From Candidatus Parcubacteria bacterium (GTDB taxonomy: Bacteria > Patescibacteriota > Minisyncoccia > Phycocordibacterales > UBA5272): a stretch of DNA of 50,533 bases. The position numbers were made by a program, and so were the translations under genes. Under the pieces are notes generated by a model. The model was not told the origin of the DNA, did no database searches, and was given only the letters and a program-made list of their open reading frames with translations. Positions 27,057 through 45,069 of the stretch are shown piece by piece (the first letter of the stretch is position 1; every line of letters starts with the position of its first letter). The DNA lies in assembly GCA_039805745.1 (NCBI GenBank), contig JBDLTQ010000014.1:1-50533 (forward strand), given 5' to 3'.

Positions 27057-27064
27057 TACACACC

Positions 27065-28033: not shown

Positions 28034-28042
28034 ACACCAACT

Positions 28043-30728: not shown

Positions 30729-32456
30729 CTAAACAGATTGCTCTAACTTTTTTTCAATCTCTTTCTCTGTTATCTCAAGTCGTTTTTTGAACTTCTTAAG
30801 TATCGCCTGTTCTTCTTTGGTGAGCTCACGTTTACGCTCTGCTTTTACAAGTACATCATGAAACTCTTCAATATCACGACGAAGCGCTGAAACATTCACC
30901 CTAAGTGTACTCTCTGCTTCTTTTAGGTTACGCTTCACCTTACGACGGAATCGTCTAAACTGAACAAATGAATACCATAATGTTGCGAGCACCATGAGAA
31001 CTGCAATCACAATAATAAGTATCACGGAGAGCCAATTCATGACAAAGATACCGAGACGAAGTAGTACCATTCTTTCAACAACAATAACTTTTGTGTCAGT
31101 ATAGTCACTAATAGAACCACGACCATCCGAAACTCTTGCTCGCATTTCGTATACACCAGAATCAAGACGACTACTCCATACAAGTGTGAATACTCCAGCC
31201 TCATTTGAAGAAGCATGTTCTGTGAAGGTCTTTCCTTCAGCATTTGTAAGCACTACTTCTATTTGTGATTGCGGATATGTTGCACCAACAACCTTAAAAC
31301 GAGTATCAAAATCTACTTTCTTTGTGTACTCAGTAATGACAGGAGGGGCAATAGCCTGAATAGTCACATCAAGAGTTACTGTGCTTACATTTCCAGCATT
31401 ATCAATAGCGCTCACAACAACAGAATGATTACCGGCAGACTGTTTTGGTAAACGATATAAATGAGAAGAATCAACAGGAAACTCTATTGGCTGTCCATTA
31501 TCAATACTAAGAGTAATCTTGTTTACACCTGAAAGAGAATCCTCTGCTTGAACAGAAACGGCAGGTGTCTGATTAGTCGTAACAGCCCCATCTGGGAATG
31601 AAGCCTTGAGTGACTCAGGCGGCTGAGAGTCTACAAGGAATGCGTAGGTTGCTTTACTCCCCCATCCACTCTTGTTTTTAAACTGAACATGCATATAAAA
31701 CGTACCATCACTCTCAACAGTAAAGGAACGATTTGTTACAGGTGGATCATATACCTTAGATGGTGTATCAGATTCTTTTTCGCTATAAATAGTTCGAATA
31801 GCAATCACCCCACTTGGGACTTTCCATTCAAACGATGCATCTTTTCTGCTGTACCATTTTGTGCTATCTGGATGTGTTGGAGAAGTAATAACCGGAACAA
31901 CAGACGCGCTCACCTGAGTAGAGGGAGCGCTCACAGCGTCTTCTTCATTAATATACACAAATGCTGATCCTGTTGTTTTCAAAACATCTGTTGCGTTACC
32001 ATCATTAGCTAGAACTGACCCCTGTTTTATGGCGACACTTACATTGCCTGCCTGTTTAGCTTTAAAAGTAACCGTGACTACTTTTCCTGATGCTTTACTA
32101 TACCCTGGATTAAGAGCAACTCCTTCGAGAGACACCGTTCCTTTTGTATTAGAAAAAGCCGGCTCTTCTGCCCAAAGAGTAATAAAAGAACCACTCTTAG
32201 AGAGGGAGAGTACTTCTAATGCATCAGAAGGAAATGAGAGTGATGCAGATACAGCATTGATAGACTCAATATTATTTGTCACCATAATATCAACAGAAAA
32301 TGTCTTGCCAACTTTTGTAGAAACAGAAGATGGACTAACAATAAGATTAGCAGCGAAAGTTACCTGAAATGCACAAACAACACTTGCAATAAGAATAAGA
32401 AAACGAGTAGGTGGTCTATGTTGTTTGAGAAAGGAAGAAATGATTTCTTTTAGCAT
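30729..32456 (-). CDS. Cohesin-domain surface protein with Ig-like domains, C-terminal TM and cytoplasmic coiled coil
   Basis: Signal peptide. Cohesin-like module LIVSPSSVSTKVGKTFSVDIMV...VTVTFKAKQAGNVSVAI. Ig-like segments (SGVNKITLSIDNG, AIDNAGNVSTVTLDV). TM WLSVILIIVIAVLMVLATLWY. K/E-rich tail. Confidence 0.7.
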   Translation of the reverse strand: MLKEIISSFLKQHRPPTRFLILIASVVCAFQVTFAANLIVSPSSVSTKVGKTFSVDIMVTNNIESINAVSASLSFPSDALEVLSLSKSGSFITLWAEEPAFSNTKGTVSLEGVALNPGYSKASGKVVTVTFKAKQAGNVSVAIKQGSVLANDGNATDVLKTTGSAFVYINEEDAVSAPSTQVSASVVPVITSPTHPDSTKWYSRKDASFEWKVPSGVIAIRTIYSEKESDTPSKVYDPPVTNRSFTVESDGTFYMHVQFKNKSGWGSKATYAFLVDSQPPESLKASFPDGAVTTNQTPAVSVQAEDSLSGVNKITLSIDNGQPIEFPVDSSHLYRLPKQSAGNHSVVVSAIDNAGNVSTVTLDVTIQAIAPPVITEYTKKVDFDTRFKVVGATYPQSQIEVVLTNAEGKTFTEHASSNEAGVFTLVWSSRLDSGVYEMRARVSDGRGSISDYTDTKVIVVERMVLLRLGIFVMNWLSVILIIVIAVLMVLATLWYSFVQFRRFRRKVKRNLKEAESTLRVNVSALRRDIEEFHDVLVKAERKRELTKEEQAILKKFKKRLEITEKEIEKKLEQSV

Positions 32457-33372
32457 AAAGGTACGCCACTACACATATGATGAGTATAGTTATATGTATC
32501 AGTATACGCGATAATAAAGAGATGCGGTGAGAGTTTTCAACAGGTTGAATCGTTTCGATTGCATACGAGTTATTAGCATATACTATTTTAATATGAAGAT
32601 ACTTTGACCTATCTTGATGTATAAGCATGTATGGTGATGAAACAGCTCGCCACTCATACGAAGCAACAGCTTGCGCACTCACCGCATCACTCTCAGCAAC
32701 AAAGATCTGCTCTATTGGACTATATGATTCTTTTTCTGTGACACTAAGATACCACGCATTACGATAAACAAGATCACTTCGTGAGAGAGATATTAATAAA
32801 TTACTACTACTCACCTGTTTCTCTGGGAGAGATGTAAGTGTCGGCCTTATAGGAAGACTCTTCACATCAACACGTTCTACCACCTGAGTAGTAGGAATAG
32901 ATGTCGCCCTCTCATTAAAAGTATTAAGAGTGATTGTATCTATTGTAAGAAGACTCTCACCTCTTTTTTTAGGAATAAGAATAAGAGAAAAAGCTTTACC
33001 ATCTTTTACACCGTCATAATACGCACTACGCACTCCACTAAAACCACCAGCAAAAATACCTTCAAACGTCACATGTGTCCTGTTATCAAGATATCGCTCA
33101 TCAGAAACATGAGGATACACAACCCATGGAGTAACAACACTACCACTTGTAGTTATTGTATAAACATCAAACATATCACTCTGGAATGAAAAATCACCAG
33201 CTACACCACTTAACGGTACCCCTTCTGGAGCAATGAACACATCGACAACAAAGGGTTGTCCGTCTTTTGGTATCCCTTGTGAAAAAACAAGACGTAGGGA
33301 AGCTGCAGACACTTGTAATGTAGCAACACTAATAGTAGAAACTATAATAATAGTACGTAAAAAATATCTCAT
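32416..33372 (-). CDS. Cohesin-like surface protein with C-terminal TM anchor
   Basis: Signal peptide ending VSA-AS. LRLVFSQGIPKDGQPFVVDVFIAPEG...GDFSFQSDMFDV is cohesin-like. C-terminal TM ILIHITILIICVVAYLY. Confidence 0.6.
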   Translation of the reverse strand: MRYFLRTIIIVSTISVATLQVSAASLRLVFSQGIPKDGQPFVVDVFIAPEGVPLSGVAGDFSFQSDMFDVYTITTSGSVVTPWVVYPHVSDERYLDNRTHVTFEGIFAGGFSGVRSAYYDGVKDGKAFSLILIPKKRGESLLTIDTITLNTFNERATSIPTTQVVERVDVKSLPIRPTLTSLPEKQVSSSNLLISLSRSDLVYRNAWYLSVTEKESYSPIEQIFVAESDAVSAQAVASYEWRAVSSPYMLIHQDRSKYLHIKIVYANNSYAIETIQPVENSHRISLLSRILIHITILIICVVAYLYAKRNHFFLSQTT

Positions 33373-33376
33373 ATAG

Positions 33377-34360
33377 TTATCCAGTCCAGCAATATGCCAA
33401 AATACTAAGGTCTGTTAAATTAATTTTCCCGTCAGAACTAAGATCAACCTTTACAGGAAAACCGAGCCGTTTATACCAAAAGGCCATAATACTAAAATCA
33501 AGAATATTCACCCTGTTGTCATTATTTAAATCACAACGTTTTCTAAAACCAGCTAATTCTTTTGTTTGTGTTCTAATCCTATCAGTATCGCCCACTCGAA
33601 ATGGTACGGTTTGAGAATAGGGAGAAAGGTCATCTACAGTAAGTGATCTAGCTTTACCGTCATGATCACCAAGTTCAAGCTCACTTGAATCAAGTTTATA
33701 CAACCACGACCCTTGTGAATTGGCTTTTGTTTTTTTGAGAAGTTCTGTATCTGAATGAAATGAAAGCCTCACTTCAGCATCAGGACTTGATCTTCCAAGA
33801 AAAGTAATAATCTCTCCACGCTTTACTTCTACTTTATCAGAAGTAATAGTTGGTGGAATAAAAATACCATCAACTATTGTTGTCACACCAGAAGTGACAT
33901 AGATCGTAAATGTAAGCAGCTTTGAAGTACGTCGTTCTGTATCTTCTGCCCTCACCCCAAAACTATAGGTACCTTGTGTAAGATTACGAAGGCGTATTTC
34001 GAAAGTTCCATTTGGACTCGCAGGCATTTCAGCAACAATACTGCCGTTTTTAAGAAGAGAAATAACACTTCCCGGATAAGCTAATCCTTTAAACACTGCA
34101 ACATCTGTTGTGTCTATAGTAATAGGTGCAATCGGACTTGTTGGTGGAATAGGTGGTGTATCAGGGTACACAATAGGAGGCTGAGGAACAACAGCTGATA
34201 TAGATATATCAACAGTAAGAGGGTTCGTTGTAGTTACTTGCGCAAAAAGAAAGTAATACGGAAAAGAAAACAGTACAAAAAAAAGAAAAAATCTTTGTAT
34301 TATTTTTTTTAAAGACACTCCTACTCTTTTGCCGCTGCTCGCGCTTGCTTGATAATCCAT
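33377..34360 (-). CDS. Dockerin-containing exported protein with two Ig/CarboxypepD_reg-like domains
   Basis: Two EF-hand-like dockerin segments at the C-terminus, DLNNDNRVNILD and DLSSDGKINLTD (33380..33535). The ATG at 34360 overlaps the upstream gene by 40 nt. A GTG at about 34315 (SLKKIIQRFFLFF...) would remove the overlap. Confidence 0.75.
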   Translation of the reverse strand: MDYQASASSGKRVGVSLKKIIQRFFLFFVLFSFPYYFLFAQVTTTNPLTVDISISAVVPQPPIVYPDTPPIPPTSPIAPITIDTTDVAVFKGLAYPGSVISLLKNGSIVAEMPASPNGTFEIRLRNLTQGTYSFGVRAEDTERRTSKLLTFTIYVTSGVTTIVDGIFIPPTITSDKVEVKRGEIITFLGRSSPDAEVRLSFHSDTELLKKTKANSQGSWLYKLDSSELELGDHDGKARSLTVDDLSPYSQTVPFRVGDTDRIRTQTKELAGFRKRCDLNNDNRVNILDFSIMAFWYKRLGFPVKVDLSSDGKINLTDLSILAYCWTG

Positions 34361-35298
34361 CGGTTATATCGCTTAACGAGAATCATGAGAAGAACAATAA
34401 CAAGAAGCACCGCAACAAGTACGACTGTTATTAAGTGCCATGGGAAGATAAAATACGTAAGAGAAGCATTCGCTGTCCCAGAATTACCAAATGTAAGTCC
34501 AAGATCTGCAGTGTACATACCAAGAGCAAAATGCTTCATTTGAAATTTAACATGATCAAAAAATGGAGCAGAGACAGCTGGCGCATCTACATCTCCTAGA
34601 CGAAATTCAAATTTGCGAGTACTTCCTGGGAGAACATTTCCTTGTGATGGGTTTGCATTAATATTTGCAACATCACCACCAAACATATTAGTAATCACAA
34701 CACTACCTTCTGGCTTCGCTCTATCGTTACCTGTGTTATTAAATTTATATACAAAATCAACAGGAAGACTAGTGAAAACTTTATCTCCATCCTTAGTAGC
34801 AAAAGACGAAAGTCCTCCGCTTTCTTTGATATCTCCAGTTACACGAAGAAGGATAAGCATACCAATCTTTGAACCAACAGAGACTTGCCCTTCTTCAGCA
34901 GATGGAGGAACTGTTGAGAGAAAGATAGCTGCAAAATGCCCGCCTGATTCAGCTTCTTGTGGAATAGTCACCGTATATGGTACCGCAAGACGCTCCCCCT
35001 TTTTAATTACCACCTTTTCTGCAATAGTTACCCATGTAGAAAGCCCTTCTTGTGCTTGAATAAAGTTCGGGGTACCTGTTTCCCCTTGCGCGTCAAAAGC
35101 TTCAACAGAAGTATACAAGACTTGATCTGTATCTTGCTCATTAATAACAGTGAATGTTTTTGTGATGGTCTCACCTTTGTCACCCGTTAATTCTTCACGA
35201 GCAGGAGATACCGTGAGAGCAAAGGCACTCTGCACACTAAGCGCAGTAACAAGAAGTGAGGCAGATGCTATTTTTTTTACTATAGATGTAGCTGTCAT
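34321..35298 (-). CDS. DUF916/DUF3324-like cell-surface protein with C-terminal TM anchor
   Basis: Signal peptide (..SAFA-LTVSP), two beta-rich halves (..GGHFAAIFLS.. and ..NVLPGSTRKFEF..), C-terminal TM ITVVLVAVLLVIVLLMILV followed by KRYNRW. Same architecture as CscA/DufA proteins of WxL loci. Confidence 0.55.
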   Translation of the reverse strand: MTATSIVKKIASASLLVTALSVQSAFALTVSPAREELTGDKGETITKTFTVINEQDTDQVLYTSVEAFDAQGETGTPNFIQAQEGLSTWVTIAEKVVIKKGERLAVPYTVTIPQEAESGGHFAAIFLSTVPPSAEEGQVSVGSKIGMLILLRVTGDIKESGGLSSFATKDGDKVFTSLPVDFVYKFNNTGNDRAKPEGSVVITNMFGGDVANINANPSQGNVLPGSTRKFEFRLGDVDAPAVSAPFFDHVKFQMKHFALGMYTADLGLTFGNSGTANASLTYFIFPWHLITVVLVAVLLVIVLLMILVKRYNRWIIKQARAAAKE

Positions 35299-35319
35299 GA
35301 ATGATTCGTTATTAAATTA

Positions 35320-36441
35320 CTAGAAGTTAGCCGTTGCTACATACACGAGACTTGCGGCATATGTACCAGCTTCTGTAATAGCTGAAATGTTGGCAAGATA
35401 ACGAAGAGAGAGAGTTGATGTGAGTGTTGCTCCCGACCCTGTAGCAAAAAGAGCTGATGTTGTAGCTGTGCCATCATATCCATACGATGTAGCACCTGAA
35501 AATGTCTGATCTACAGTCACACCAGTACCGCCAGTTTCTGTAGCACGAATACCGAACTGCTCAGTTCCTGCAGTAGATGAGGCGTACGATGCACCAATAT
35601 AAGAAATTGTATTCGCCGAATTCTGTTGTGATGTAAGAGTCTGTCCACGAACTGTAAGTGCGAATCCAGATGGCGCATTAGTGGATACTCCAAGTGTGTG
35701 TGCGATTGTTTCTGTTGTATCTCCTGAAGTATTGGTAGATGAAGCAAACTTAGCTGCGCCTGATCCTAGGTTTCCAAAATAGATAGTAGATGTAGAGATA
35801 GTAAAGGTGAGAGATTGAGGAACAGTTCCTGTCATAGCAACAGTGTCATCGTTAATGATTGTTGTGGTGATAGACCCTGTGTCAGTAAAACTACCAGCTA
35901 CGAGAATCTCGTAGCTCCCTGGTGTCGCTGGGTTGGTGATTTGTGATACACCTGTTGCTCCAGAGGTAGCATTAGAACCTATTTCGATCTGTATACAACG
36001 GTTAGCTGGAATAACTGCTGTACCTGAAGTGATGGTAATAGTCTGAGATCCTTGAGCAACTCCCCATGTGAGTCCTGATGCTGATGAGGAAACAAGAGCG
36101 TCAGTAAATCCTGAACAAGTAGCAGAAGTACTTGTCGCAAGGTCTATATTATTCACATTAAAGCTTCCCATAGTATACCCTGCAGGAAAAGTAAGGGTAA
36201 TATTCTGTCCGGCTGCAACACCTGTTGGTGTAACAAACTGAATAGTGTGATCAGAGAGGGTGTTTATCTTTACTGATGACTGAGAATCTGAAAGAGATGA
36301 CAGCGCTGCTGCATGAACTATCTCAACATGAGTGATAGACACACCGAGAACAACCGCAAAAATAGTGAGAGCGCTCACACAAGAGGATATAAAATTTTTC
36401 TTCAACATAACAAAATAAATTACTACTAAAATACAGGTCAT
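35320..36441 (-). CDS. Exported protein, paralog 1, with Trp-less WxL-like C-terminal domain
   Basis: Signal peptide ..VEIVHA-AALSS. Shares roughly three quarters of residues (by eye) with the next gene. C-terminal about 160 aa shared with the 1091-aa protein; ends YVATANF. An alternative ATG at 36408 aligns with the paralog start. Confidence 0.85.
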   Translation of the reverse strand: MTCILVVIYFVMLKKNFISSCVSALTIFAVVLGVSITHVEIVHAAALSSLSDSQSSVKINTLSDHTIQFVTPTGVAAGQNITLTFPAGYTMGSFNVNNIDLATSTSATCSGFTDALVSSSASGLTWGVAQGSQTITITSGTAVIPANRCIQIEIGSNATSGATGVSQITNPATPGSYEILVAGSFTDTGSITTTIINDDTVAMTGTVPQSLTFTISTSTIYFGNLGSGAAKFASSTNTSGDTTETIAHTLGVSTNAPSGFALTVRGQTLTSQQNSANTISYIGASYASSTAGTEQFGIRATETGGTGVTVDQTFSGATSYGYDGTATTSALFATGSGATLTSTLSLRYLANISAITEAGTYAASLVYVATANF

Positions 36442-36462
36442 GATCTCTACATCATTGTCTGT

Positions 36463-36513
36463 ACCTATAAGTGTACCATTTTAAGGTAAATATGCAGGAA
36501 AAAGTGTGGATAA
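36463..36513 (-). promoter_or_regulatory. Candidate promoter/operator: TTATCCACA ... TATAGGTA
   Basis: Minus strand reads TTATCCACACTTTTTCC..(36 nt)..ATAGGT, 22 nt before the ATG at 36441. Confidence 0.4.
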
Positions 36514-36530
36514 GATACACAATAAACAAA

Positions 36531-37616
36531 TCAGTAGTTAGCGGCGGCAACATAAACAACACTTGCTACATACGTACCAGCTTCTGTTGTACCTCCGATG
36601 TTAGCAACATATCTAATAGAATACGTTGAAGTATTAGTTGCGCCAGACCCCGTTGCGAACACAGCAGATGTTGTAGCGGTTGCGTCATATCCATAAGATG
36701 TTGCAGCGCTATATGTTGCATCGACAGTAGCCCCTGTTCCACCAGATACTGTAGCACGAATACCGAACTGCTCAGTTCCTGGAGTAGATGACGCCGCGGA
36801 AGAACCCATCGCAGTAATAGTATTAGAAGAACTCTGTTGTGATGTAAGAGTCTGCCCACGAACTGTAAGTGTGTATCCAGTAGAAGCATTAGTAGACACA
36901 CCGAGCGTATGAGCAATTGTTTCTGTTGCGTCCCCTGAAGTATTGGTAGATGAAGCAAACTTAGCAGCACCTGATCCTAGGTTTCCAAAATAGATAGTGG
37001 TGGTAGAAATAGTAAAAGTAATAGACTGCTGTACCGTAGCACTAATCACAACCGTATCGTCTGTAATAATATTCTGTGTAATACTCCCAGAATCAGGACC
37101 AGCAATAACAGTGATTGCGTATGATCCTGGTGTCGTTGGGTTGGTAATCTGTGTAGCCCCGTTTGCTGATGATGTTGCGTTAGAACCAATCTGAATCTGC
37201 ACACAACGGTTGGCAGGAATAACGGCAGTACCTGATGTGATATACACCGTCGCCGTCGCTTGAGTAACACCCCATGTGAGTCCAGATGCCGCACCTGACT
37301 GAATAAGTGCATCAGTAAAACCAGAACACGTAGCGGATGTGGATGTAGCAAGATCGAAGTTAGCAATAGCAAAAGTTCCCGTTGCGTAGTTAGATGGAAA
37401 AGTAATACTAATTCCTTGACCAGCAGAAAGACCTGTTGGTGTCACGAACTGAACAGTATGATCAGAGAGGGTGCTTACTTTTACTGATGACTGAGTATCT
37501 GAAAGACTAGAAAGTGCAGCAGCAAAAACAATCTCGACATGAACAATCGAGACACCAAGAACAATGCTTATAACGGTAAGCCAACTGACACACCACTTAA
37601 AGGAATTACTTTTCAT
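36531..37616 (-). CDS. Exported protein, paralog 2, with Trp-less WxL-like C-terminal domain
   Basis: Signal peptide ..VEIVFA-AALSS. Two conserved Cys (ATCSGFTD, PANRCVQI). Ends YVAAANY. Confidence 0.85.
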   Translation of the reverse strand: MKSNSFKWCVSWLTVISIVLGVSIVHVEIVFAAALSSLSDTQSSVKVSTLSDHTVQFVTPTGLSAGQGISITFPSNYATGTFAIANFDLATSTSATCSGFTDALIQSGAASGLTWGVTQATATVYITSGTAVIPANRCVQIQIGSNATSSANGATQITNPTTPGSYAITVIAGPDSGSITQNIITDDTVVISATVQQSITFTISTTTIYFGNLGSGAAKFASSTNTSGDATETIAHTLGVSTNASTGYTLTVRGQTLTSQQSSSNTITAMGSSAASSTPGTEQFGIRATVSGGTGATVDATYSAATSYGYDATATTSAVFATGSGATNTSTYSIRYVANIGGTTEAGTYVASVVYVAAANY

Positions 37617-37634
37617 AGACGGATTGCACGATAC

Positions 37635-37687
37635 ACCTATTCATAGTCTAAGCATACCACGCAAACGAAAAGGCGTAGAGTGGATAA
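37635..37687 (-). promoter_or_regulatory. Candidate promoter/operator: TTATCCACT ... AATAGGTG
   Basis: Minus strand reads TTATCCACTCTACGCC..(38 nt)..ATAGGT, 19 nt before the ATG at 37616. A possible TTGCGT -35 lies about 18 nt upstream of ATAGGT. Confidence 0.35.
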
Positions 37688-37716
37688 TCTACAGTACTTC
37701 TACAAGAAAGAACTCT

Positions 37717-40700
37717 TTAGAAATTAGCAGTGACAACATAGACTAACCCTGTTGTATAATTTTCTGGTTCAGTAAGTGCAGAAATATTCGTAACATACCT
37801 CACTGAAAATGTTGTTGTTGCATTATCACCAACAGAGGCAGAGGCCACCTGACTTGAAGTTGTAGCCGTTCCAGCATACGCGAAACCGCTCGCTGCATAA
37901 GGAGCAGTCACAGTACCAGATCCACCAGAAGATGTCACACGCAAGCCAAACTGTTCTGTGCCGATAGTTGAAACAGTATTTGTACCACCTATTGCATTAA
38001 CAGTATATATACCAGCATTAAGTGTTTGACCTCGTACAGTAAGCATGTAGCCATTTGAAGCATTAGTGAGTACTTGTAGTGTATGAGCCTCGACCTCTGT
38101 ATCACTACCACTGCTATTTGTACTTGACGCATATCTTGCAATCACTGGAGAAGCTTGTCCTAAATAAATAGTAGATGTTGAAAGAATAAGCGTTAGTGAC
38201 TGCGCTGGTGCAGCGTTACTCTCTTCATCCCACTCGAACAAAAAACGATACCGCACAAGTGCATCTCCTTGTGTTTGCTCTTGGTAAAAAGCTAACCCTT
38301 CCCCTTCTTTTATCACAAGCTCATCACCGTAGTACACAGTACTCTCATAATCACCATACACTTGATTCACCGCACCCGGTGTGGTGACACCAAGAAGTCT
38401 AGAACTTGTTGCTCCTGAAAAAGTAGCTGAAAGGCCTGTTGTTCTTACTTCTGCAGTTGAAGTACTTGTACTTGAGTGCTTTTTTGGAATACTTGAGGAT
38501 GCTATGAGAGTACCGCCAGACGCTGTAGTAACACGGCGTATAGCAAGTGGTGTATACACAGGGGCGACACCTGTTCCACTTCGATCAGCACGCACCGCTA
38601 TTTTGCGTACCAGATAATTTTTACCAGAACCTGAAGGATTAAATAATGAAGAATATACATACCCTTGTGTTGTCGCTTGGTTTACTGGACCCGTTGTCAT
38701 AAGATACTCACTTTGAGAACTTGGCGATGAAGACTCTTCATCCCATTCAATGAGCATCTTAACTCTAAAATCAACATCCCCTGCAGAGGTGTCGTGGTAC
38801 AATCCTACCCCTTCCCCTGGCTGAAGCACAATATACTCTCTGTTACTAAACTCAATATCTTTATACCCAGTATTACCAGCAGAGGCTGAGGCAACTGCTC
38901 CTGGTGTCTGAATAGCTAATAATTTAGAATCTGTTGTACCAGAATATGTTGCCGTCACACCGGTGCGACGTATTTCCATAATACTGTTAGACGACCCTGT
39001 GTGTTTTTTTGGAATATTCGCTGCCGTTATTTGTGTACCAGCAGACGCGGAAGCAATACGACGTAATTGCATAGGAATATACACCGCAGTAGTAACAGCA
39101 TCAACACGTAAAGATACTCTTCGTATAATAGCTGTCTTACCAGAACCAACGGGGTTAAAAAATGTTGCATAATTATAGCTTGTCGCAGTACTTCCATTTA
39201 TCGGCCCTATATCTACAATATATTCACCCTGTGAAGATGGTGCTGATGCCTCCTCATCCCATTCCACCATAATCTTTATATAATCATCAACATCAGCTGT
39301 CGCACTATTGTACAGACCGATACCCTCACCTTCTTGAAGAATTATTTTTTCATTTCCTTCAAAAACTATTTCTCGTTGACCTATTGTTTGTCCAACTGCA
39401 CCAGGTGTGTTTACACTAAGAATATTAGAATCTGTTGTTCCTGAATAGGTAGCAGTTATCACCGAAGCACAAGCTGATCCACACCATCTAATCTGCATCG
39501 TACTTGACGCAGAGTCTGTATTCTTCTGTGGAACACTTGATGTGGCAATAAGTGTTCCACCAGACGCTGCGGTTATTCTTCTAAAACTAAAGGAGACATA
39601 GTTCGCGGTTGTGTCTGCATTAATACGTATTACCAACCGTTTTATAACAGCAACTTTTCCAGAACCTGATGGATTAAAAAAAGAATAGTGAGTTGTGTTC
39701 GCAGCTGAAGCAGACTCAACCCTTGATGAAGCCCAGAGGTACCCACCTTCTGCTGTTGGTGTATTAGCAGCTGAGACTTCTTGCCATTCTATAATCATAC
39801 GAACAAGCTGATCTGTATCTCCTGCTGTTTCAGATAACAAGGCTACCCCTTCACCTTGCTGTAAAATAAGTTTTTCATCACCTTCATAAAAATCTAACTG
39901 TTGCCAACCACTAGCCTGACCAGCTGCGCCACATGGAGTAACATTTGCAATACGTGCATCCGCTCCACCTACTACTGTCTCTGTTGGATTTGTATGACGG
40001 AATTCCATAACACTATCTGCAGAACTGGTATTTTTTTTAGGGATATTTGTCGATGTCACTTGTGTACCACCAGTTGACGCAGAGATACGTTGAAGTACAA
40101 GATTATTGGTATATACCGCCGCCGCATCACAAGTCTCTGAGCCAAACCAGATACGTTTTACTATTGCTGTCTTACCAGAAGAGCTCGGATTAAAAAAAGA
40201 ATTATACGTATACCCTATGGCTGCGTTAGCTTCCACTCGGGGGAAAGAGTAAAGAAATTCATCTTGAGATGCTGGTGCATTAACCGTCTCATCCCACTCA
40301 ATAAGAACAAGTACTTTTGAGTTTGTGGTTCCAGCAGCTTCCTGATACACAGCAACACCTTCTCCTGGCTGAATAACCAGCTTCTCATCATTTTGACCAA
40401 AGGTTATATCTCGTCCACTTTGATATGCTCCAACAGCACCAGATAATGGCTGTCCTATAATACGAGAATCAGTAGTCCCAGATAAGGTAACGGATGGTCC
40501 AGCTTGACGAATTTCTACAACAGAATCACTCGAGGCAGTATTTTTCTTTGGATAATTAGTAGCTGTTATCTGAGCACCTCCTGATGAGGTAGAGATTCTA
40601 CGCATTGTGAGATTCACGTAATTAGAAGCAGATGACGTAGTATTAGAACGTATAGCGATGCGTTTAATGGAAGCCGTCCTGCCAGAGCCTGATGGATTCA

Positions 40701-40992
40701 TAAAAGAAGCATAGACATAATTAGCAGATGCAGACCCATCAACAGGACCAATATCGACAACATATTCTCTTTCTCCTGAATTGACCGCCGCATGTACTGT
40801 CGTTCCCTTAAAATAGACATCAACCACATTTGGATTTTTTGAAGCAAGATACATCATATCTACAACCTTACCCCTCGGATGAATAACTTCCTGATAGACA
40901 ACGTACGATAAAGTCGCTGGATCAACTCCAGAAAAAAGCATCGAAATGATGTACACCCCCGCCAGTGTTTTTTTAATAAGGTCTCGCAACAT
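37717..40992 (-). CDS. 1091-aa exported protein: five tandem ~170-aa modules plus the shared WxL-like C-terminal domain
   Basis: N-terminal anchor/signal AGVYIISMLFSG. Repeats at aa 76-244, 245-416, 417-589, 590-761 and 762-932. C-terminal aa 933-1091 is about half identical (by eye) to the paralog C-termini; ends YVVTANF. Confidence 0.9.
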   Translation of the reverse strand: MLRDLIKKTLAGVYIISMLFSGVDPATLSYVVYQEVIHPRGKVVDMMYLASKNPNVVDVYFKGTTVHAAVNSGEREYVVDIGPVDGSASANYVYASFMNPSGSGRTASIKRIAIRSNTTSSASNYVNLTMRRISTSSGGAQITATNYPKKNTASSDSVVEIRQAGPSVTLSGTTDSRIIGQPLSGAVGAYQSGRDITFGQNDEKLVIQPGEGVAVYQEAAGTTNSKVLVLIEWDETVNAPASQDEFLYSFPRVEANAAIGYTYNSFFNPSSSGKTAIVKRIWFGSETCDAAAVYTNNLVLQRISASTGGTQVTSTNIPKKNTSSADSVMEFRHTNPTETVVGGADARIANVTPCGAAGQASGWQQLDFYEGDEKLILQQGEGVALLSETAGDTDQLVRMIIEWQEVSAANTPTAEGGYLWASSRVESASAANTTHYSFFNPSGSGKVAVIKRLVIRINADTTANYVSFSFRRITAASGGTLIATSSVPQKNTDSASSTMQIRWCGSACASVITATYSGTTDSNILSVNTPGAVGQTIGQREIVFEGNEKIILQEGEGIGLYNSATADVDDYIKIMVEWDEEASAPSSQGEYIVDIGPINGSTATSYNYATFFNPVGSGKTAIIRRVSLRVDAVTTAVYIPMQLRRIASASAGTQITAANIPKKHTGSSNSIMEIRRTGVTATYSGTTDSKLLAIQTPGAVASASAGNTGYKDIEFSNREYIVLQPGEGVGLYHDTSAGDVDFRVKMLIEWDEESSSPSSQSEYLMTTGPVNQATTQGYVYSSLFNPSGSGKNYLVRKIAVRADRSGTGVAPVYTPLAIRRVTTASGGTLIASSSIPKKHSSTSTSTAEVRTTGLSATFSGATSSRLLGVTTPGAVNQVYGDYESTVYYGDELVIKEGEGLAFYQEQTQGDALVRYRFLFEWDEESNAAPAQSLTLILSTSTIYLGQASPVIARYASSTNSSGSDTEVEAHTLQVLTNASNGYMLTVRGQTLNAGIYTVNAIGGTNTVSTIGTEQFGLRVTSSGGSGTVTAPYAASGFAYAGTATTSSQVASASVGDNATTTFSVRYVTNISALTEPENYTTGLVYVVTANF
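38197..40767 (-). repeat. Five in-frame tandem coding repeats of about 510 nt (169-173 aa)
   Basis: Each unit carries Y-x-Y-x-[ST]-F-[FM]-N-P-[SV]-G-S-G-[KR], [IV]-[KR]-R-[IV], L-x-R-I, S-G-G-[TA], [IY]-P-[KQ]-K-[NH]-T, G-T-T-D-S, P-G-A-V, E-K-[LI]-[IV]-L-Q-x-G-E-G, and [IVF]-E-W-[DQ]-E. The DNA copies are diverged. Confidence 0.9.
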
Positions 40993-41968
40993 AGTGATAT
41001 ACTTCTTCGCCTATTACCTTAAACAACTGTTCTATTTCTTTTCGCTTAAACTCATCACCATTTTTTTGTTGTATCATAACAGTGAGAATGTACGGTCTTC
41101 CAGACACATACACAATACCAGAATCTGCCATCACTTTTTCATCTAAACGAATACCTGTTTTATGAACAAAAGGTACGTCAGATGGTATTCCTGTACTAAG
41201 AAGATCATTAGGCGCTTGTTCAAGTATATCCATAAAAAGTTCTGAATGTTTTTGGTCTAAAAATGTCGCATTATACAGTGATCGAAAAAAAATAGAGTAT
41301 CGCTTCGCGGTAATACGATTATCAACCTCTTTGTCTTTTTTATTTCTTTTGAGGGCCTCGATAACATCATCCATACCAAGGTGCACATACACATCTTCAA
41401 GCTCTGCGTTTTCGAGATTGCGAAGCAGTATAAAGTGTGCCGTGTTATCAGAATTAATAAGGGATTCTTTAAGCAGGTTCTCAATAGCTATTGTTGTTCC
41501 ATTTGGTTTTTTGTATAACTCACCATAATCACTATCTTTATCCTCTTCCAAAATAACAAGCTCGTTAGAAAGTTTCCAATCTCCCTCTTGCACTTTCTTC
41601 ATTGCTGTCATAGCAACAGGAATTTTAATAAGACTTGCAGGCCACATTCGCTCATCTTTATTGATCGCAATACTTGCTCCAGTTGGAAGATACTCAAAAT
41701 AAATAGAAATGAGAAAATCATCACGATGCTCATATGTGGTTGTGAGCTTTTCTCGAAGCGTTTGAAAATCAACAATAAGATTCCTTTTATCAAGGATACG
41801 AAGTGCTGGATTAAGATAACGATTATCAACACCCATAGAAGACTCATTAGAATGAAGTGTGATATACAGCACAAAAATAACAAACATACTAATAACGCTT
41901 ATAAGTGCAACCTTATATCGATTGATTATTTTTTTACTATCTGGTGTTGTAGTGGTACGATACTGCAT
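40973..41968 (-). CDS. Membrane-anchored class-A beta-lactamase-fold serine hydrolase
   Basis: N-terminal TM VALISVISMFVIFVLYITL. SxxK (ASLIK), SDN (INSDNTAH), KTG (HKTGIR). The stop overlaps the start of the 1091-aa gene by 20 nt. Confidence 0.75.
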   Translation of the reverse strand: MQYRTTTTPDSKKIINRYKVALISVISMFVIFVLYITLHSNESSMGVDNRYLNPALRILDKRNLIVDFQTLREKLTTTYEHRDDFLISIYFEYLPTGASIAINKDERMWPASLIKIPVAMTAMKKVQEGDWKLSNELVILEEDKDSDYGELYKKPNGTTIAIENLLKESLINSDNTAHFILLRNLENAELEDVYVHLGMDDVIEALKRNKKDKEVDNRITAKRYSIFFRSLYNATFLDQKHSELFMDILEQAPNDLLSTGIPSDVPFVHKTGIRLDEKVMADSGIVYVSGRPYILTVMIQQKNGDEFKRKEIEQLFKVIGEEVYHYVARPY

Positions 41969-41970
41969 AG

Positions 41971-44541
41971 TTATTCAACAATGGACACAGAGCTCTCTTC
42001 AGAAGAACCTTCTGTTGTCTCTTTTTTTTCTTCGACAGGAAGATTCAGATTACTAATAGCATCTTCGTCGAGAACTTTATCAAGTTCAAGTTTTTTTCGA
42101 AGCGCTTCAGCAACTAACACATCATCATCAGAAAAAACCTCACCTGTTTCCCTGCTATAAAACACAAACCCACCAGAAGAAATAATAACCTCAAAAGGTA
42201 CACCTTCGAAGGATACATGTCCACGCTCTCCATGTGACACATCAAACGGTTGTAGAGCTTGCTCTAGTATACTATTTGTAGTGAGATTATATGCATACAC
42301 GATACTCCTATCATTAGACAACCAAAAGACATGTCCAGCTTTAACCCCAATAGGATAGTCCCCCGCAAAAGAAGTACTTGAACCTGTGTCAATTTTTTGT
42401 TGAGTTCCTTTTTCTACATCATATAACCACAACTCCTCTCGAGACTCTTTTTCCACCTGAACAATAATTGCATTCAAAAATGTCCCTTTTATCTTCTTAA
42501 TAATATCAAGAGCAAAGTCAGGAACTCTCTCCTCTTTCTCTTGTATATCTAAAGCTTCTTTATCTTTTTTGGTTATCTCTTCAATGAGAGACTGCGTTGC
42601 TATTGTTTTTTCTACCACACCGTTATATTTAAGCCATTTATTTTTTGGCATCACTGGTTGTATAGGGGTTGTGGTACTGTTATTTTTTTGTATAACAGTT
42701 GAGGTTGATACCTGTAGTGGTGTCGTAGTCCCCATTTCTGAAGATGTTGCTTGTGAGGTCGTTGAAGTAGGAAGTAAAATCAAAGCATCTGTACTGCTTG
42801 CTGTGTGAAGAAGTGAGGAACTCGCCTCTACTAAAGAAGTAGTAACAGTACTTGTAGCCTCCTGTTCGAGATACATATACCAGATTTCTTCTTTGTTGGT
42901 TTCATTGTTAATAATAGTCACAACACGCACACCATTAAGCACTTCATCATTAAGTATGGTATCACGCGTAAAATCTGGATGGGTATACACAAGAGCACCC
43001 TCATAGAGAACTTCTACTTTTACTGCGTCAAGATAGACAGTTGGTGTCTCATCAATTGATTTTTTTGAAACAATTTTTATCTGAAGCTGACTCATATCTT
43101 TCCATGTAGTTGAAGCGGTAACAGGTATCTCAAATGTACGGTACTTCATAGAAATTTCATTAAGCTCACCAAGAGATGTCCATAAAACACCATCAAATGT
43201 ATAGATAATCTCAAGAAAATTATTTTGTGTATCATTTGCTTCTGTTACAACCTCTTGAGGTGTAGAGGCAGTCTGTTCAAGAGACGTGGCGGCAATGGTA
43301 GAAGTCGACGGCGCTACATCAGTTGATGTTGCGGTAGATGTCGATACAATACTAGTGAGGTTCTCATTAGTTGAGGAAGCTGTAGAGCTCTCACTCGCTG
43401 CTGTGTCTTGAGAAAGAGAGGTCTGACTAGACTGTTCGTTATCGATAGAATTAGGGAGAGATTGTTCATTACTTTCTGTTGTTGTACTCATTGTGGCAGT
43501 ACTCTCTGTAGAATGAGTAGTGTCCACGATACTATCACCCTCTTCTGCAAACACTGTTGGTGCCACAAAAGAAGAAATATTAAACAACAAAGACTCAAGT
43601 AGTGATGTTGGTTCTGGTTGTGTTTCTGTCTCTTTCGGAGAAGATTGATCTACAGAAGGTGTCTGTGTTTCAGGTGAGGATGTCTCTCCTACTTGAGACT
43701 CTTCTTTCTGAGGAATCGGAGCAATCACTGTATCTGTTTCTGTAGGAAGAGTACTAGTATTCTCAAAAAGATCAGCTACAACATCTTTAACTGAGTCAAA
43801 AAGAGTACCGAAAAAAGTTTGTGAACCGTCATGAGAAGAACTTGTCGCTATCTCACTTGTAGAAGAAGTAACTACTTCAGTACTCGCTGTTGCTGGCGCA
43901 CCTAACACAGTAGAGGAACTCTCTTCCGAAGAAGTACTAGAAGTAGCTGTCAAAGAAGCCCCATCTAAAGAAGAAGATGCCTGCAAAAGAGTGAACGATA
44001 CTTCTGTTGTAGAAGCGGTATCAAGAATAGCTTGTGAAGACGATGCAAACGTCTCTCCATGAATCATCTCTTCAAGAACAAGTTCATCGCCTTTTGTCAT
44101 AGCAAATGAGACGAGTATCTTTACGGGTGTTGTTGTATCATCAAATGTTCCAGAAAAGTTTCCACAGTAGATTTCAGCCTGAGTATTCTTTGGAAGCACC
44201 GCGGAATTACTTGATGTAAATAACGTAACATCACCATTAGATGCAGTTTGTGGCTCGCCTTCTGCATTACGAGGATTCACCCATCCACCCAAACATGTAT
44301 CAGGGTGAAATATTACACTATCAGCTTTTCCTTTTGGAGAAATAAAATTACCGAGCACGAGCAACAACACCAAGGTTGAAAGCGTCATCATGAGACGTTT
44401 CTTTTGAAGTGTCTTATCAACTTGTTTTGAATATTCAAAAACCAAGCCCTCCAAAGACTTCGTTACATTATCCACATGTGACGTTACTTCTGGAAACTTC
44501 TTCGAAATAATACGTGGTCGTTTAAGATGGAATTTGCCCAT
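41971..44541 (-). CDS. 856-aa signal-anchored Ser/Thr-rich surface protein, unknown function
   Basis: TM LMMTLSTLVLLLVLGNFI, long S/T/E-rich low-complexity tracts, structured middle and C-terminal segments. Ends 2 nt before the next gene. Confidence 0.8.
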   Translation of the reverse strand: MGKFHLKRPRIISKKFPEVTSHVDNVTKSLEGLVFEYSKQVDKTLQKKRLMMTLSTLVLLLVLGNFISPKGKADSVIFHPDTCLGGWVNPRNAEGEPQTASNGDVTLFTSSNSAVLPKNTQAEIYCGNFSGTFDDTTTPVKILVSFAMTKGDELVLEEMIHGETFASSSQAILDTASTTEVSFTLLQASSSLDGASLTATSSTSSEESSSTVLGAPATASTEVVTSSTSEIATSSSHDGSQTFFGTLFDSVKDVVADLFENTSTLPTETDTVIAPIPQKEESQVGETSSPETQTPSVDQSSPKETETQPEPTSLLESLLFNISSFVAPTVFAEEGDSIVDTTHSTESTATMSTTTESNEQSLPNSIDNEQSSQTSLSQDTAASESSTASSTNENLTSIVSTSTATSTDVAPSTSTIAATSLEQTASTPQEVVTEANDTQNNFLEIIYTFDGVLWTSLGELNEISMKYRTFEIPVTASTTWKDMSQLQIKIVSKKSIDETPTVYLDAVKVEVLYEGALVYTHPDFTRDTILNDEVLNGVRVVTIINNETNKEEIWYMYLEQEATSTVTTSLVEASSSLLHTASSTDALILLPTSTTSQATSSEMGTTTPLQVSTSTVIQKNNSTTTPIQPVMPKNKWLKYNGVVEKTIATQSLIEEITKKDKEALDIQEKEERVPDFALDIIKKIKGTFLNAIIVQVEKESREELWLYDVEKGTQQKIDTGSSTSFAGDYPIGVKAGHVFWLSNDRSIVYAYNLTTNSILEQALQPFDVSHGERGHVSFEGVPFEVIISSGGFVFYSRETGEVFSDDDVLVAEALRKKLELDKVLDEDAISNLNLPVEEKKETTEGSSEESSVSIVE

Positions 44542-44622: not shown

Positions 44623-45069
44623 TTATTCAAGAATAAGTGGGCGGACCGGTCGTAGTATTGCAAGCGGATCTGTCTTCCATTCTTCAGAGACGTCAGCGTA
44701 CAACTCGAGCTCGTTACCATCTGGATCAAGAATATAAAGACTATGAGTGATAGTATGATCCGCAGAACCAAGAATGCTGACACCTTTTTGCTTCAACTCA
44801 TGCCACACAGAAACAATAGCGTCATGTCCATCACCAACCTTAAAGCCAATATGATATAAACCAGGTTTTGGTCGAAACGCACTTTGACGCTCCACTTCAC
44901 CGCCAACCTCAATAAGCAAAAGCTCATGATGTGTCCTACTTCCACCAAATAATGCTATGCCTTGATCTCTGTGTATCTCATTATAGCCAAGTATATCCCG
45001 ATAAAAATGAGCAGAGGAAGTAATATCTCTCACATACAAAACAACATGACCTAATTCTTGTATTTTCAT
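44623..45069 (-). CDS. VOC-family (glyoxalase/bleomycin-resistance/dioxygenase) protein
   Basis: MKIQELGHVVLYVRDITSSAHFYRDILGY and HIGFKV, LYILDPDGNELELY paired beta-alpha-beta-beta-beta modules. Confidence 0.85.
   Translation of the reverse strand: MKIQELGHVVLYVRDITSSAHFYRDILGYNEIHRDQGIALFGGSRTHHELLLIEVGGEVERQSAFRPKPGLYHIGFKVGDGHDAIVSVWHELKQKGVSILGSADHTITHSLYILDPDGNELELYADVSEEWKTDPLAILRPVRPLILE

Follow-up and report, generated by a model that had tools for sequence, protein, structure and literature searches.

A nine-gene locus of a Candidatus Parcubacteria bacterium that probably encodes a Pam-type pilus with a dockerin-cohesin anchor

Results

Layout of the locus and export signals

The window analysed here, 50,533 nucleotides of contig JBDLTQ010000014.1 of a Candidatus Parcubacteria bacterium, carries on its minus strand, at 30729-44541, nine co-directional genes (g1 to g9, Table 1), all of which were present as open reading frames exactly where the original prediction, made from the letters of the DNA, had placed them. 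The distances between them agreed as well and amount, from g1 to g9, to 2, -20, 100, 89, 21, -40, 4 and -41 nt, with adjacent genes joined by overlaps of 20, 40 and 41 nt. The reading frame of g5 extends to 36441 (35320-36441, 373 aa); its start is likely M12, which gives 362 aa and matches the NCBI record (P0301, 362 aa).

Export signals were judged by a hydropathy scan with a threshold, and C-terminal membrane helices were detected in g6, g8 and g9. The claim that every product begins with a signal peptide or signal anchor was borne out by an N-terminal hydrophobic segment in eight of nine, whereas the h-region of g3 (AGVYIISMLFSGV) stayed under the threshold; a signal peptide is probable there. 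In agreement with the original prediction, searches of the nine-gene block with Pfam and NCBIfam revealed neither a sortase nor an usher, secretin or ATPase family, and an LPXTG sorting signal was absent from g3, g4 and g5.

Table 1. Genes and features of the nine-gene block (positions in the window).
Feature	Position	Strand	Description
g1	41971..44541	-	856 aa, Ser/Thr-rich, one membrane helix
g2	40973..41968	-	331 aa, membrane-anchored predicted serine hydrolase, Pfam Beta-lactamase2
g3	37717..40992	-	1091 aa, candidate tip adhesin, NF058581
g3 repeat region	38221..40815	-	five modules, residues ~60-924
g3 C-terminal pilin domain	37720..38202	-	residues 931-1091
g4	36531..37616	-	361 aa, two-domain, putative Pam-type shaft pilin, NF058581
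g4 linker TVVISATVQ	37029..37055	-	residues 188-196, putative donor strand
g5	35320..36408	-	362 aa from M12, putative second shaft pilin, NF058581
g6	34321..35298	-	325 aa, membrane-anchored, chaperone-like, two Ig-like domains
g7	33377..34360	-	327 aa, candidate terminator/adaptor, Big_6 + Dockerin_1
g7 N-terminal strand TVDISISAVV	34187..34216	-	residues 49-58, pilin-donor-linker-like
g7 dockerin	33380..33535	-	residues 276-327, two Ca-binding-type loops
g8	32416..33372	-	318 aa, membrane-anchored, cohesin-like domain
g9	30729..32456	-	575 aa, membrane-anchored, cohesin-like and Ig-like domains

Pilin-like proteins and candidate tip

The Pam pilus is a donor-strand-exchange pilus of the CPR bacterium Candidatus Mycosynbacter amalyticus (Saccharimonadia), structurally characterised in 2026, with the components PamA, PamB, PamE, PamT, PamC, PamD and PamR (bioRxiv 10.64898/2026.03.03.709456). 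Its pilin model in NCBIfam, NF058581 (CPR_Pam_pilin_C, "Pam pilus system pilin subunit"), matched g3, g4 and g5 with 59.7, 68.7 and 65.0 bits, respectively, at a curated cutoff of 55 bits; the match in g3 spans residues 959-1091. Diverse homologues of the pilin family matched it in 22 of 27 cases (best E 2e-23), 20 also matching PamT. By these matches the original view of the block as undescribed and assignable to no known system was overturned, while the expectation of a surface-fibre or adhesin operon whose assembly involves no sortase, usher or ATPase was strengthened by them and by the absences given above. A confident assignment to a characterised pathway was reached for the pilin and chaperone core, not for g1, g2, g7, g8 and g9; the Pam models of NCBIfam (among them NF058581 and NF058579) matched none of g6, g7, g8 and g9.

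The two proteins taken for paralogs of about 365 aa, g4 and g5, proved to be 73% identical. In g4, for which 612 homologues were found, an N-terminal beta-sandwich (44-184) lies behind the signal peptide and is joined by a linker strand (188-196) to the C-terminal acceptor domain (199-359); in the AF2 monomer model (pLDDT 77) the linker (187-195) is unstructured, with pLDDT below 50, and in the g4 family a pair of cysteines in the N-terminal domain (Cys97/Cys138) is invariant. The linker motif V-x-[VIM]-[ST]-[AG]-x-V occurred in 72 of 73 pilins, directly ahead of the first strand of the C-terminal domain, and in 0 of 23 g3-like proteins. A sequence search of the PDB with the pilin profile matched nothing, and a structural search with the g4 model returned generic two-Ig-domain adhesins only.

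The five modules predicted for g3 were recovered at ~172 aa each and a mutual identity of 38-48%; no Pfam or PDB family matched this repeat region, and the size of g3 varied from 191 to 2064 aa across loci. Over its C-terminal 160 aa, g3 shares 52% identity with the C-terminal domains of both g4 and g5. Because g3 presents an acceptor domain without a donor linker, it would be a tip adhesin, and g4 and g5, as both donor linker and acceptor domain are present, would form the shaft.

Chaperone-like protein g6 and its relation to WxLIP

In the AF2 model of g6 (pLDDT 79.8), two Ig-like beta-sandwich domains are followed by a TM helix at the C-terminus (290-308); with the signal peptide in front, this is the architecture of WxLIP. 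Its best Foldseek matches (E 1e-10 to 1e-7) were WxLIP (9i1y/9i25, E 1.6e-10), RbmA and the chaperone-usher chaperones CfaA, CsuC, Caf1M, DraB and FimC, at TM-scores that are low (0.2-0.45) because domain orientations differ. The top PDB matches by sequence were to EfmWxLIP1 (E 0.11). The original prediction had called g6 DUF916-like: g6 itself gave no DUF916 match in Pfam, but 20 of 43 distant relatives matched PF06030 WxLIP_PGBD (formerly DUF916), and the g6 family (7935 clusters) is remotely homologous to WxLIP (DUF916-DUF3324), so that the parallel drawn to WxL/DUF916 (Csc-type) loci could be retained. We propose g6 as the counterpart of PamC and PamD, to which it was likened via their published description as FimC/PapD-like proteins with a C-terminal TM helix (bioRxiv 10.64898/2026.03.03.709456). 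Since g6 resembles RbmA and chaperones in fold to about the same degree, it may act as an anchor in the manner of PamR.

With this homology, a WxL/Csc-type cell-surface complex has to be considered, in which g6 would hold the proteins with the common C-terminal domain non-covalently on the wall, in discrete complexes and without a polymer. As in the clusters of Firmicutes (Csc loci of Lactiplantibacillus, Enterococcus WxL loci), one WxLIP-type protein is accompanied here by small proteins and one large protein with a common C-terminal domain, and in an AlphaFold prediction the WxLIP hairpin was inserted into WxL, a chaperone-like contact because of which WxL and Pam-type systems may be related. 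WxL proteins have been described in complexes bound to peptidoglycan rather than as polymers. However, the defining dual Trp-x-Leu motif is missing in g3, g4 and g5, Pfam WxL matched none of the diverse pilins and the pilin profile missed the long-WxL chain of 9i25, by which the reading of the two paralogs as WxL proteins was contradicted. Instead, these partners of g6 have C-terminal domains that score above the cutoff of the Pam pilin model, and a donor linker is present among them; moreover, the succession of acceptor-only, donor-plus-acceptor and donor-only proteins is needed by a polymer but not by a 1:1 complex. A complex of this kind is accordingly considered unlikely.

Dockerin protein g7 and cohesin-like proteins g8 and g9

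Behind its signal peptide, g7 has a short donor-like strand, which a Pro-rich linker connects to two Ig-like domains; a type I dockerin forms the C-terminus, and an acceptor domain is lacking. Pfam matched Big_6 (2.5e-6) and Dockerin_1 (27.3 bits, cutoff 22.9); together with two loops of the Ca-binding type DxNxDxxxxxxD, DLNNDNRVNILD and DLSSDGKINLTD, this confirmed the predicted dockerin. The pilin-type strand motif stands straight after the signal peptide in most of 48 g7 homologues. In one locus (L043) the g7 orthologue consists of the whole N-terminal half of a pilin, with the pilin linker at its end, fused to a Gly linker, Ig domains and dockerin (pilin profile positions 10-198 at 2.9e-40, g7 profile 40-320 at 6e-99), and it is the pilin linker that holds the position of the N-terminal strand of g7. 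When the fusion was left out, the profile-profile comparison of g7 and pilins was not significant, the common strand being only ~10 residues long. With a donor-like strand but no acceptor domain, and with Ig domains and a dockerin behind the strand, g7 is a candidate terminator.

Behind their signal peptides, g8 and g9 have a cohesin-like domain (~25-165 and ~36-170, respectively), and g8 is 29% identical to the N-terminus of g9. In g8, another beta domain follows and a TM helix (284-302) lies at the C-terminus; in g9, Ig-like domains (Big_13, OmpL47-type) lead to a TM helix (475-493), behind which stands a cytoplasmic tail of 80 aa with 49% charged residues. That both are cohesin-like, as had been suggested, was not confirmed by a direct Pfam Cohesin match, but one of 12 homologues (P0275, of g8) matched Pfam Cohesin at 5.7e-6, and the top four PDB matches of the profile of their N-terminal domains were cohesin structures (E 1e-4 to 0.16), although these matches are partial (~55 residues at E 1e-4). 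Being membrane-anchored cohesin-like proteins, g8 and g9 would serve as anchor and putative dockerin partners.

The same domains could instead belong to a cellulosome-like scaffold, with the cohesins of g8 and g9 displaying dockerin-tagged enzymes or other cargo and the remaining genes being unrelated wall-protein neighbours. The g7 dockerin with its two Ca-loop repeats is like those of cellulosomes (e.g., of Ruminococcus flavefaciens, cohesins 5aoz, 5m2o), the cohesin carriers are surface-anchored in both, and glycoside hydrolase genes lie close by at 22617-27056. Yet the sole dockerin protein has Ig-like domains only and no catalytic domain, neither attached enzymes nor carbohydrate-binding modules are found, anchoring is by a C-terminal TM helix and not by SLH domains or sortase, and the module sits inside the putative pilus operon. 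The nearby GH57, GH15 and GT4/GT5 genes, accompanied by PGI and ROK genes in what looks like sugar or glycogen metabolism, are on the opposite strand, and these flanks are missing in distant loci that retain the block. Furthermore, g7 is accompanied by g8 and g9 wherever a locus extends far enough to include them, always downstream of pilin and g6, in fixed order and with overlapping reading frames. A scaffold for enzymes was consequently judged very improbable.

Conservation of the gene order

The order g3, pilins, g6, g7, g8, g9 is kept in ~45 species-level genomes, in agreement with the synteny that the original prediction had proposed to check. Among these loci, ~15 have different flanks and the identity of g6, which is better conserved than any other gene of the block, falls as low as 39%. 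Promoter and terminator scans gave no operon-level signal above background, as a chance cluster of exported proteins without joint function would have it, but since the gene neighbourhood is conserved and one domain is common to three products, such a juxtaposition is refuted by synteny and hardly credible.

Discussion

Proposed assembly

Taken together, the nine-gene block is probably a Pam-type pilus operon in a parcubacterial version, in which a dockerin-cohesin anchor would stand in place of the transmembrane anchor. Domain content was taken from tool results, and the assembly steps we infer. By homology and motif logic, the products of g3, g4 and g5 may be joined by donor-strand exchange into a Sec-dependent, usher-less fibre, in which the incomplete Ig-like C-terminal domain of each subunit would be completed by a strand of the next. 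On the outside of the membrane, to which it is tethered, g6 would cap the open groove of new subunits and hand them on. Presumably g3 would be confined to the distal end, with the five modules as the adhesin, and g4 and g5 would polymerise head to tail. Growth would stop when the donor-like strand at the mature N-terminus of g7 caps the last acceptor groove, and its C-terminal dockerin could be received by g8 and g9 in their cohesin-like domains; this would fix the fibre to the cell and replace PamR, the transmembrane terminator of the described system.

Comparison with known fibre systems

Besides the pilin C-terminal domain, which here scores above the curated cutoff, the Pam pilus and the present block have in common a CPR host, Sec export without usher, ATPase or sortase, a two-Ig-domain chaperone-like protein with C-terminal TM helix, a tip subunit without linker, a conserved Cys pair in the pilin N-terminal domain, and the layout of PamA, PamB and PamE (N-terminal sandwich, linker, C-terminal domain), which is that of the g4 model. 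However, the block derives from Parcubacteria/Paceibacterota and not from Saccharimonadia, has one chaperone-like gene instead of two chaperone genes, and a five-module candidate tip of 1091 aa where PamT has a single domain and 241 aa. No counterpart of the RbmA-like transmembrane terminator PamR was identified; its place is taken by the donor-strand-plus-dockerin protein and two cohesin-like membrane proteins. The ATP synthase neighbourhood of the preprint is absent here, whereas its conserved genes additionally include those for a beta-lactamase-fold hydrolase and for a Ser/Thr-rich protein. Neither the cohesin-dockerin module nor the link to WxLIP is contained in the Pam preprint (bioRxiv 10.64898/2026.03.03.709456).

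Chaperone-usher pili of Gram-negative bacteria (Pap, Fim, Csu, CFA/I, Caf1) follow a similar logic of donor-strand complementation and exchange and have the two-domain chaperone fold as well. Their FimH/PapG tip consists of a receptor-binding part and an acceptor-only pilin domain, as proposed for g3, and a terminator (PapH, FimI) ends growth, as proposed for g7. In contrast, the outer-membrane usher is lacking here, the chaperone is membrane-tethered, the donor is an internal linker rather than an N-terminal extension, the pilins have two domains, and the proposed terminator carries a dockerin but no acceptor domain.

Accessory genes

Judged by its sequence, g2 is a serine hydrolase with the class A beta-lactamase/penicillin-recognising fold and an accessory gene that roughly half of the related loci possess. 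The original assignment as SxxK/SDN/KTG hydrolase was corroborated by the Pfam match to Beta-lactamase2 (5.9e-40) and by homologues that retain SxxK (23/23), SDN (23/23) and KTG (19/23); NCBIfam bla_class_A reached 89.5 bits, far under its cutoff of 200. Anchored by an N-terminal TM helix (20-38), g2 perhaps opens or remodels the peptidoglycan wall locally. For g1, which matched no Pfam or NCBIfam family, we propose an accessory role as a Ser/Thr-rich (26% S+T) anchored protein with a membrane helix at residues 50-68; its homologues, of 194-863 aa, occupy the first position in most related loci.

Operon layout and export

The nine consecutive ORFs g1 to g9, numbered in the order of transcription, all lie on the minus strand and are spaced by 2, -20, 100, 89, 21, -40, 4 and -41 nt, exactly as in the original prediction. 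In the source record the contig is a MAG under the label Candidatus Parcubacteria bacterium, with locus tags RLZZ308_284 to RLZZ308_288, which puts it in the Patescibacteria/CPR group; base composition is uniform across the window. Scans for promoters and terminators gave counts at or near shuffle level, with none in the intergenic gaps of the block. For g5, the shorter of two possible forms (362 aa) was favoured by alignment with g4.

An N-terminal hydrophobic segment was found by hydropathy scan in eight of the nine products, whereas the h-region of g3 fell below the threshold, so that the predicted export signal on every product stands for eight of them and is weak for g3. With this reservation for the signal peptide of g3, all components are Sec-exported and a dedicated trans-envelope machine is absent, as in Pam pili. 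C-terminal membrane helices were detected in g6 (TM 290-308), g8 and g9. Motif and family scans (Pfam and NCBIfam) returned neither a C-terminal LPXTG sorting signal in the products nor a sortase, usher, secretin or ATPase family within the block, the same outcome as had been read from the sequence. Both components of a sortase-assembled pilus, LPXTG-type signals and a pilin-specific sortase, were thus not found, and an outer-membrane usher, as expected of a chaperone-usher system, was encoded neither in the block nor among the window ORFs scanned.

Pfam matched only three of the nine proteins, namely g2 (Beta-lactamase2, 5.9e-40), g7 (Big_6 and Dockerin_1, both above cutoff) and g9 (Big_13). 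The membrane-anchored g2 retains the SxxK, SDN and KTG motifs, and we guess that it may remodel the wall locally.

Pilins and membership in the Pam system

Cryo-EM of filaments of the Saccharimonadia parasite Mycosynbacter amalyticus led to the description of the Pam pilus, which is built of the two-domain pilins PamA and PamB: the linker strand that joins the two domains of one pilin completes the open C-terminal domain of its neighbour (bioRxiv 10.64898/2026.03.03.709456). The same operon encodes the FimC/PapD-like chaperones PamC and PamD, both with a C-terminal transmembrane helix; PamT is a single-domain tip pilin without linker, PamR resembles RbmA and serves as a terminator that has a strand at its N-terminus as well as a transmembrane helix, and assembly involves neither usher nor ATPase (bioRxiv 10.64898/2026.03.03.709456).

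The curated NCBIfam model of the truncated Ig-like (open barrel) C-terminal domain of Pam pilins, NF058581 (CPR_Pam_pilin_C, release 20), recognised g3, g4 and g5 with 59.7, 68.7 and 65.0 bits against a cutoff of 55, and, across the family, 22 of 27 diverse homologues (best 2e-23). The PamT model matched g4 and g5 weakly as well as 20 of these homologues. The paralogs g4 and g5 are 73% identical, and the last 160 residues of g3 share 52% identity with their C-terminal domains. In the AlphaFold2 model of g4 (pLDDT 77) an N-terminal beta-sandwich (44-184) and a C-terminal beta domain (199-359) are joined by a linker, of which the stretch 187-195 (DDTVVISAT) remained below pLDDT 50 in the monomer, as would be expected where a strand finds its partner only in another subunit. 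The core of the block is hence a member of the described Pam system, for which reason the claim of an undescribed system falls.

PamA and PamB were not among the g4 matches listed in PDB sequence searches and in Foldseek of the g4 model, the latter returning nothing more specific than adhesins and integrins with two Ig domains (TM-scores 0.15-0.25), which we take as speaking neither for nor against a WxL or Pam fold. Single-sequence PDB searches with g4 and g6 and PDB profile searches with the g8 and pilin families gave no match, so that PamA, PamB and the long WxL chain were out of reach by sequence.

The chaperone-like protein g6 and its probable tie to WxLIP

The most conserved gene of the block is g6, with 54-69% identity among its best 120 relatives and a family of 7935 clusters (50% identity level, E up to 1e-3). 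Its AlphaFold2 model (pLDDT 80) displays two beta-sandwich domains and a long C-terminal helix. In Foldseek against the PDB it was matched best by WxLIP of Enterococcus faecium (9i1y, and 9i25 in complex with a long WxL protein) and by RbmA; next came CfaA, CsuC, Caf1M, DraB, EcpB and FimC, the chaperones of chaperone-usher systems, all with a probability of 1.0; the TM-scores were low because inter-domain angles differ. By model and Foldseek g6 is WxLIP-like in architecture and fold, and with its C-terminal membrane helix it corresponds to the FimC/PapD-like chaperones of Pam operons, although M. amalyticus has two such genes and the present block only one. No NCBIfam model of Pam chaperones or of PamR matched g6 or 43 distant relatives.

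The description of g6 as DUF916/DUF3324-like was borne out in part: PF06030 (WxLIP_PGBD, formerly DUF916) was found in 20 of the 43 relatives, but g6 itself had no Pfam match and DUF3324 occurred in none of the relatives. EfmWxLIP1 provided the top sequence matches of the g6 profile in the PDB, with an E-value of only 0.11. The same pattern of detection applies to the nine proteins as a set, in which Pfam recorded no Cohesin, DUF916, DUF3324 or WxL, and DUF916 (g6) and Cohesin (g8) became visible through scans of relatives.

The remote homology of g6 to WxLIP is what favours the main rival explanation, a non-polymeric complex of the WxL/Csc type. Such a complex would include at least two WxL-domain proteins (dual Trp-x-Leu, Pfam WxL), but these were not found: the W-x-L motif is absent from g3, g4 and g5, Pfam WxL matched neither these proteins nor their 27 relatives, and the pilin profile did not match a WxL chain in the PDB. 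The WxL identity implied for the paralogs has consequently to be abandoned, and the donor/acceptor pattern described below also argues against the rival. A relationship between WxL clusters and Pam pili might reconcile the two views.

Proposed polarity of donor strands and acceptor domains

The linker motif V-x-[VIM]-[ST]-[AG]-x-V immediately precedes the opening strand of the C-terminal domain (QSLTFTIS) in 72 of 73 pilins and occurs in none of 23 g3-like proteins. In g3 the last repeat module (ending in EWDEE) is followed by a short Ser/Ala/Pro stretch and then the C-terminal domain. Lacking the linker motif, g3 would be able to receive a strand but not to donate one, as is expected of a tip subunit, and in this pairing of acceptor domain and missing linker it resembles PamT. 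Compared with PamT, g3 is much larger and showed no match to the PamT equivalog model.

In g7 homologues the same motif stands right after the signal peptide, e.g. TVDISISAVV in g7 of the window and VVNISATV in locus L040, followed by a Pro-/Gly-rich spacer, two Ig-like domains and dockerin. A fused g7 orthologue in locus L043 is the key evidence that this strand would derive from the donor linker of a pilin. Its first 200 residues contain the signal peptide, N-terminal domain and linker of a pilin in full (pilin profile positions 10-198, 2.9e-40), and the remainder is g7 from exactly the donor-like strand onward (g7 profile positions 40-320, 6e-99). When the fusion was left out, hhalign of g7 against pilins gave no significant match because the common element is too short, and the donor-strand homology of g7 therefore rests on fusion and motif. 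From both, g7 looks like a pilin that kept its donor strand and lost the acceptor domain, and thus like a protein able to cap a fibre and not to be extended. Taken together, these sequence patterns lead us to infer filament assembly by donor-strand exchange.

Dockerin and cohesin-like domains

The assignment of a dockerin in g7 is solid as far as sequence can tell and agrees with the original prediction: Dockerin_1 scored 27.3 bits against a Pfam cutoff of 22.9, and the duplicated Ca-binding loop-helix segments are recognisable as two loop repeats with Asp/Asn positions invariant in 15 homologues. For g8 and g9, described as cohesin-like, the term is appropriate at the family level and not for the two proteins in Pfam. 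Pfam Cohesin matched one of 12 g8 homologues (5.7e-6), and the top four PDB matches of the shared profile of the N-terminal domain were cohesins (5aoz 1e-4, 5m2o 1.4e-4, 5m2s 4e-3, 5g5d 0.16), whose coverage of the domain is limited to its first ~55 residues. The cytoplasmic tail of g9 comprises 80 residues, 49% of them charged. In related loci g7 and g8/g9 always co-occur.

PamR has no counterpart in a single protein of the block, since none combines an N-terminal strand with a C-terminal TM helix. Its features are divided: g7 has the strand but ends in dockerin, whereas g8 and g9 have the helix but start with a cohesin-like domain, and the function of PamR may be divided likewise.

A cellulosome-like scaffold, to which a dockerin protein beside cohesin-like proteins could point, is unlikely and was rejected on synteny and domain content, because the sole dockerin protein has no enzymatic part and distant loci do not keep the glycoside hydrolase genes that lie near the block here.

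Conservation across related loci

A scan with the g6 profile, restricted to one genome per species, yielded 48 loci, whose ORFs were searched with the nine window proteins. Nearly all display the order g1, g2 (not always), g3, one to four pilins, g6, g7, g8, g9. Loci with at least 49% g6 identity also have their flanks in common (FAD oxidase, ROK, PGI, GH15) and are therefore not independent evidence, but about 15 loci with 39-47% g6 identity and other flanks still possess g3, pilin, g6, g7 and g8/g9. The gene neighbourhood, which would have dissolved in related genomes had it been a chance juxtaposition, is accordingly kept, and chance clustering is excluded by this synteny together with domain content.

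Departures from the common order are given in the table. In L047, labelled Candidatus Peribacteria, a single pilin adjoins a single g6-like gene, which suggests an ancestral core of pilin and chaperone and a later gain of the cohesin-dockerin trio. In some close relatives, as in L001, three genes occupy the place of the bla-like gene and the tip gene, only the 326-aa product matching g3; the operon therefore seems to carry a variable cassette at its tip end. The size of g3-like proteins ranges from 191 to 2064 aa across loci.

Many related MAGs were named automatically, and their taxonomic labels contradict one another. Many MAGs of one third-party assembly series (within L005-L052) have 'uncultured Candidatus Saccharibacteria' or 'uncultured Gammaproteobacteria' as their title, and one 'Polynucleobacter sp.', while independently submitted close relatives bear the titles Paceibacterota, Parcubacteria or Patescibacteria; the odd titles are probably naming or binning artefacts. 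Clear relatives of pilin and g6 were also seen at 64% GC in L055 (Logan contig of SRR26348421), where they adjoin a response regulator, and at 59% GC in L054 (GCA_964373445.1), compared with 39% GC in the window.

Location of features in the window and in related loci
Feature	Location	Strand	Remarks
TSP3-repeat protein	window 2157-3572	minus	471 aa, bacterial thrombospondin type 3 repeat
Type IV pilus cluster	window 7382-18782	minus	separate from block
Pilin-like genes	window 8043-11533	minus	at least 3, N-methylation motifs; type IV pilus cluster
Prepilin peptidase A24	window 10070-10846	minus	type IV pilus cluster
PilC/T2SSF	window 11742-12965	minus	type IV pilus cluster
PilT-type ATPase	window 12975-14033	minus	type IV pilus cluster
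PilB-type ATPase	window 14223-16010	minus	type IV pilus cluster
PilM	window 17715-18782	minus	type IV pilus cluster
Sugar-related cluster	window 22617-28849	plus	GT4/GT5 glycosyltransferase, GH57, GH15, bifunctional-type phosphoglucose isomerase, ROK kinase
Block g1-g9	window 30729-44541	minus	nine consecutive ORFs
g5 5' end	window 36441-36409	minus	longest ORF begins 11 codons upstream of NCBI start
Glyoxalase-family gene	window 44623-45069		between block and YkuD gene
SH3 + YkuD L,D-transpeptidase	window 45164-46009	plus	just upstream of block, beyond glyoxalase-family gene
g7-orthologue fusion	L043:4991-6358 (CAITGV010000002.1)		455 aa; pilin N-terminal half + Gly linker, Ig domains and dockerin of g7
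Minimal locus	L047:8994-10987		no g7, g8, g9
Tip-end variant	L001:3588-7288		454-, 464- and 326-aa genes in place of bla-like gene and 1091-aa tip gene

Proposed assembly and its significance

Attachment to host cells is the presumed way of life of CPR bacteria, whose fibres of first contact are only now being identified. From the domain identities, architecture, conservation and motif distribution returned by the tools, we infer polymerisation, chaperoning, termination and dockerin-cohesin binding as follows. After Sec export, the membrane-tethered g6 would cap the open C-terminal domain of the subunits; the fibre would start with g3, and g4 and g5 would join at the base by strand exchange until growth is ended by g7. 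The dockerin of g7 would then bind the cohesin-like domain of g8 and/or g9, the transmembrane helices of which would hold the fibre, so that these proteins together would do the job proposed for PamR in M. amalyticus.

The joint reading, a donor-strand-exchange pilus ended by the donor-strand-only g7 and fastened to the cell by its dockerin in the cohesins of g8/g9, with a Pam chaperone homologous to WxLIP (DUF916-DUF3324), is advanced tentatively and with somewhat less than even credence. Several features of the locus go beyond the text of the Pam preprint, which contains no mention of dockerin or cohesin genes, of a donor-only dockerin terminator with cohesin-like membrane anchors, of a multi-module tip, of a beta-lactamase-fold gene, of homology between the chaperone-like protein and WxLIP/DUF916, or of the lineage Parcubacteria/Paceibacterota, in which the present locus places the Pam pilus (bioRxiv 10.64898/2026.03.03.709456). 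The sequence-level model of polarity, with acceptor-only tip, shaft and donor-only terminator, is directly testable, and the dockerin-cohesin anchor is a proposed answer to how a fibre is terminated and retained on a cell without outer membrane. If true, it would be a use of cohesin-dockerin for which our literature search found no report in pilus biology or CPR surface structures. The modular tip protein, variable in size, is a natural candidate for a determinant of host specificity.

In lactobacilli, enterococci and Listeria, WxLIP/DUF916 surface clusters have been implicated in virulence, and how they work is still debated; the WxLIP/DUF916 tie links the Pam-type block to them. Should the joint reading be true, Pam pili of CPR and WxL clusters of Firmicutes would both descend from a single ancient system of single-membrane (monoderm) bacteria for surface proteins assisted by chaperones, and the homology of Pam chaperone and WxLIP would predict strand complementation, perhaps polymerisation, in WxL systems.

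Neighbouring genes

With the separate type IV pilus cluster, two unrelated fibre systems are encoded within 25 kb. The plus-strand cluster of glycosyltransferase and glycoside hydrolase genes looks like glycogen or sugar metabolism and is syntenic with the pilus block in close relatives only. A YkuD gene lies on the other side of the block, and the TSP3-repeat protein may, by virtue of this repeat, be another surface or Ca-binding protein.
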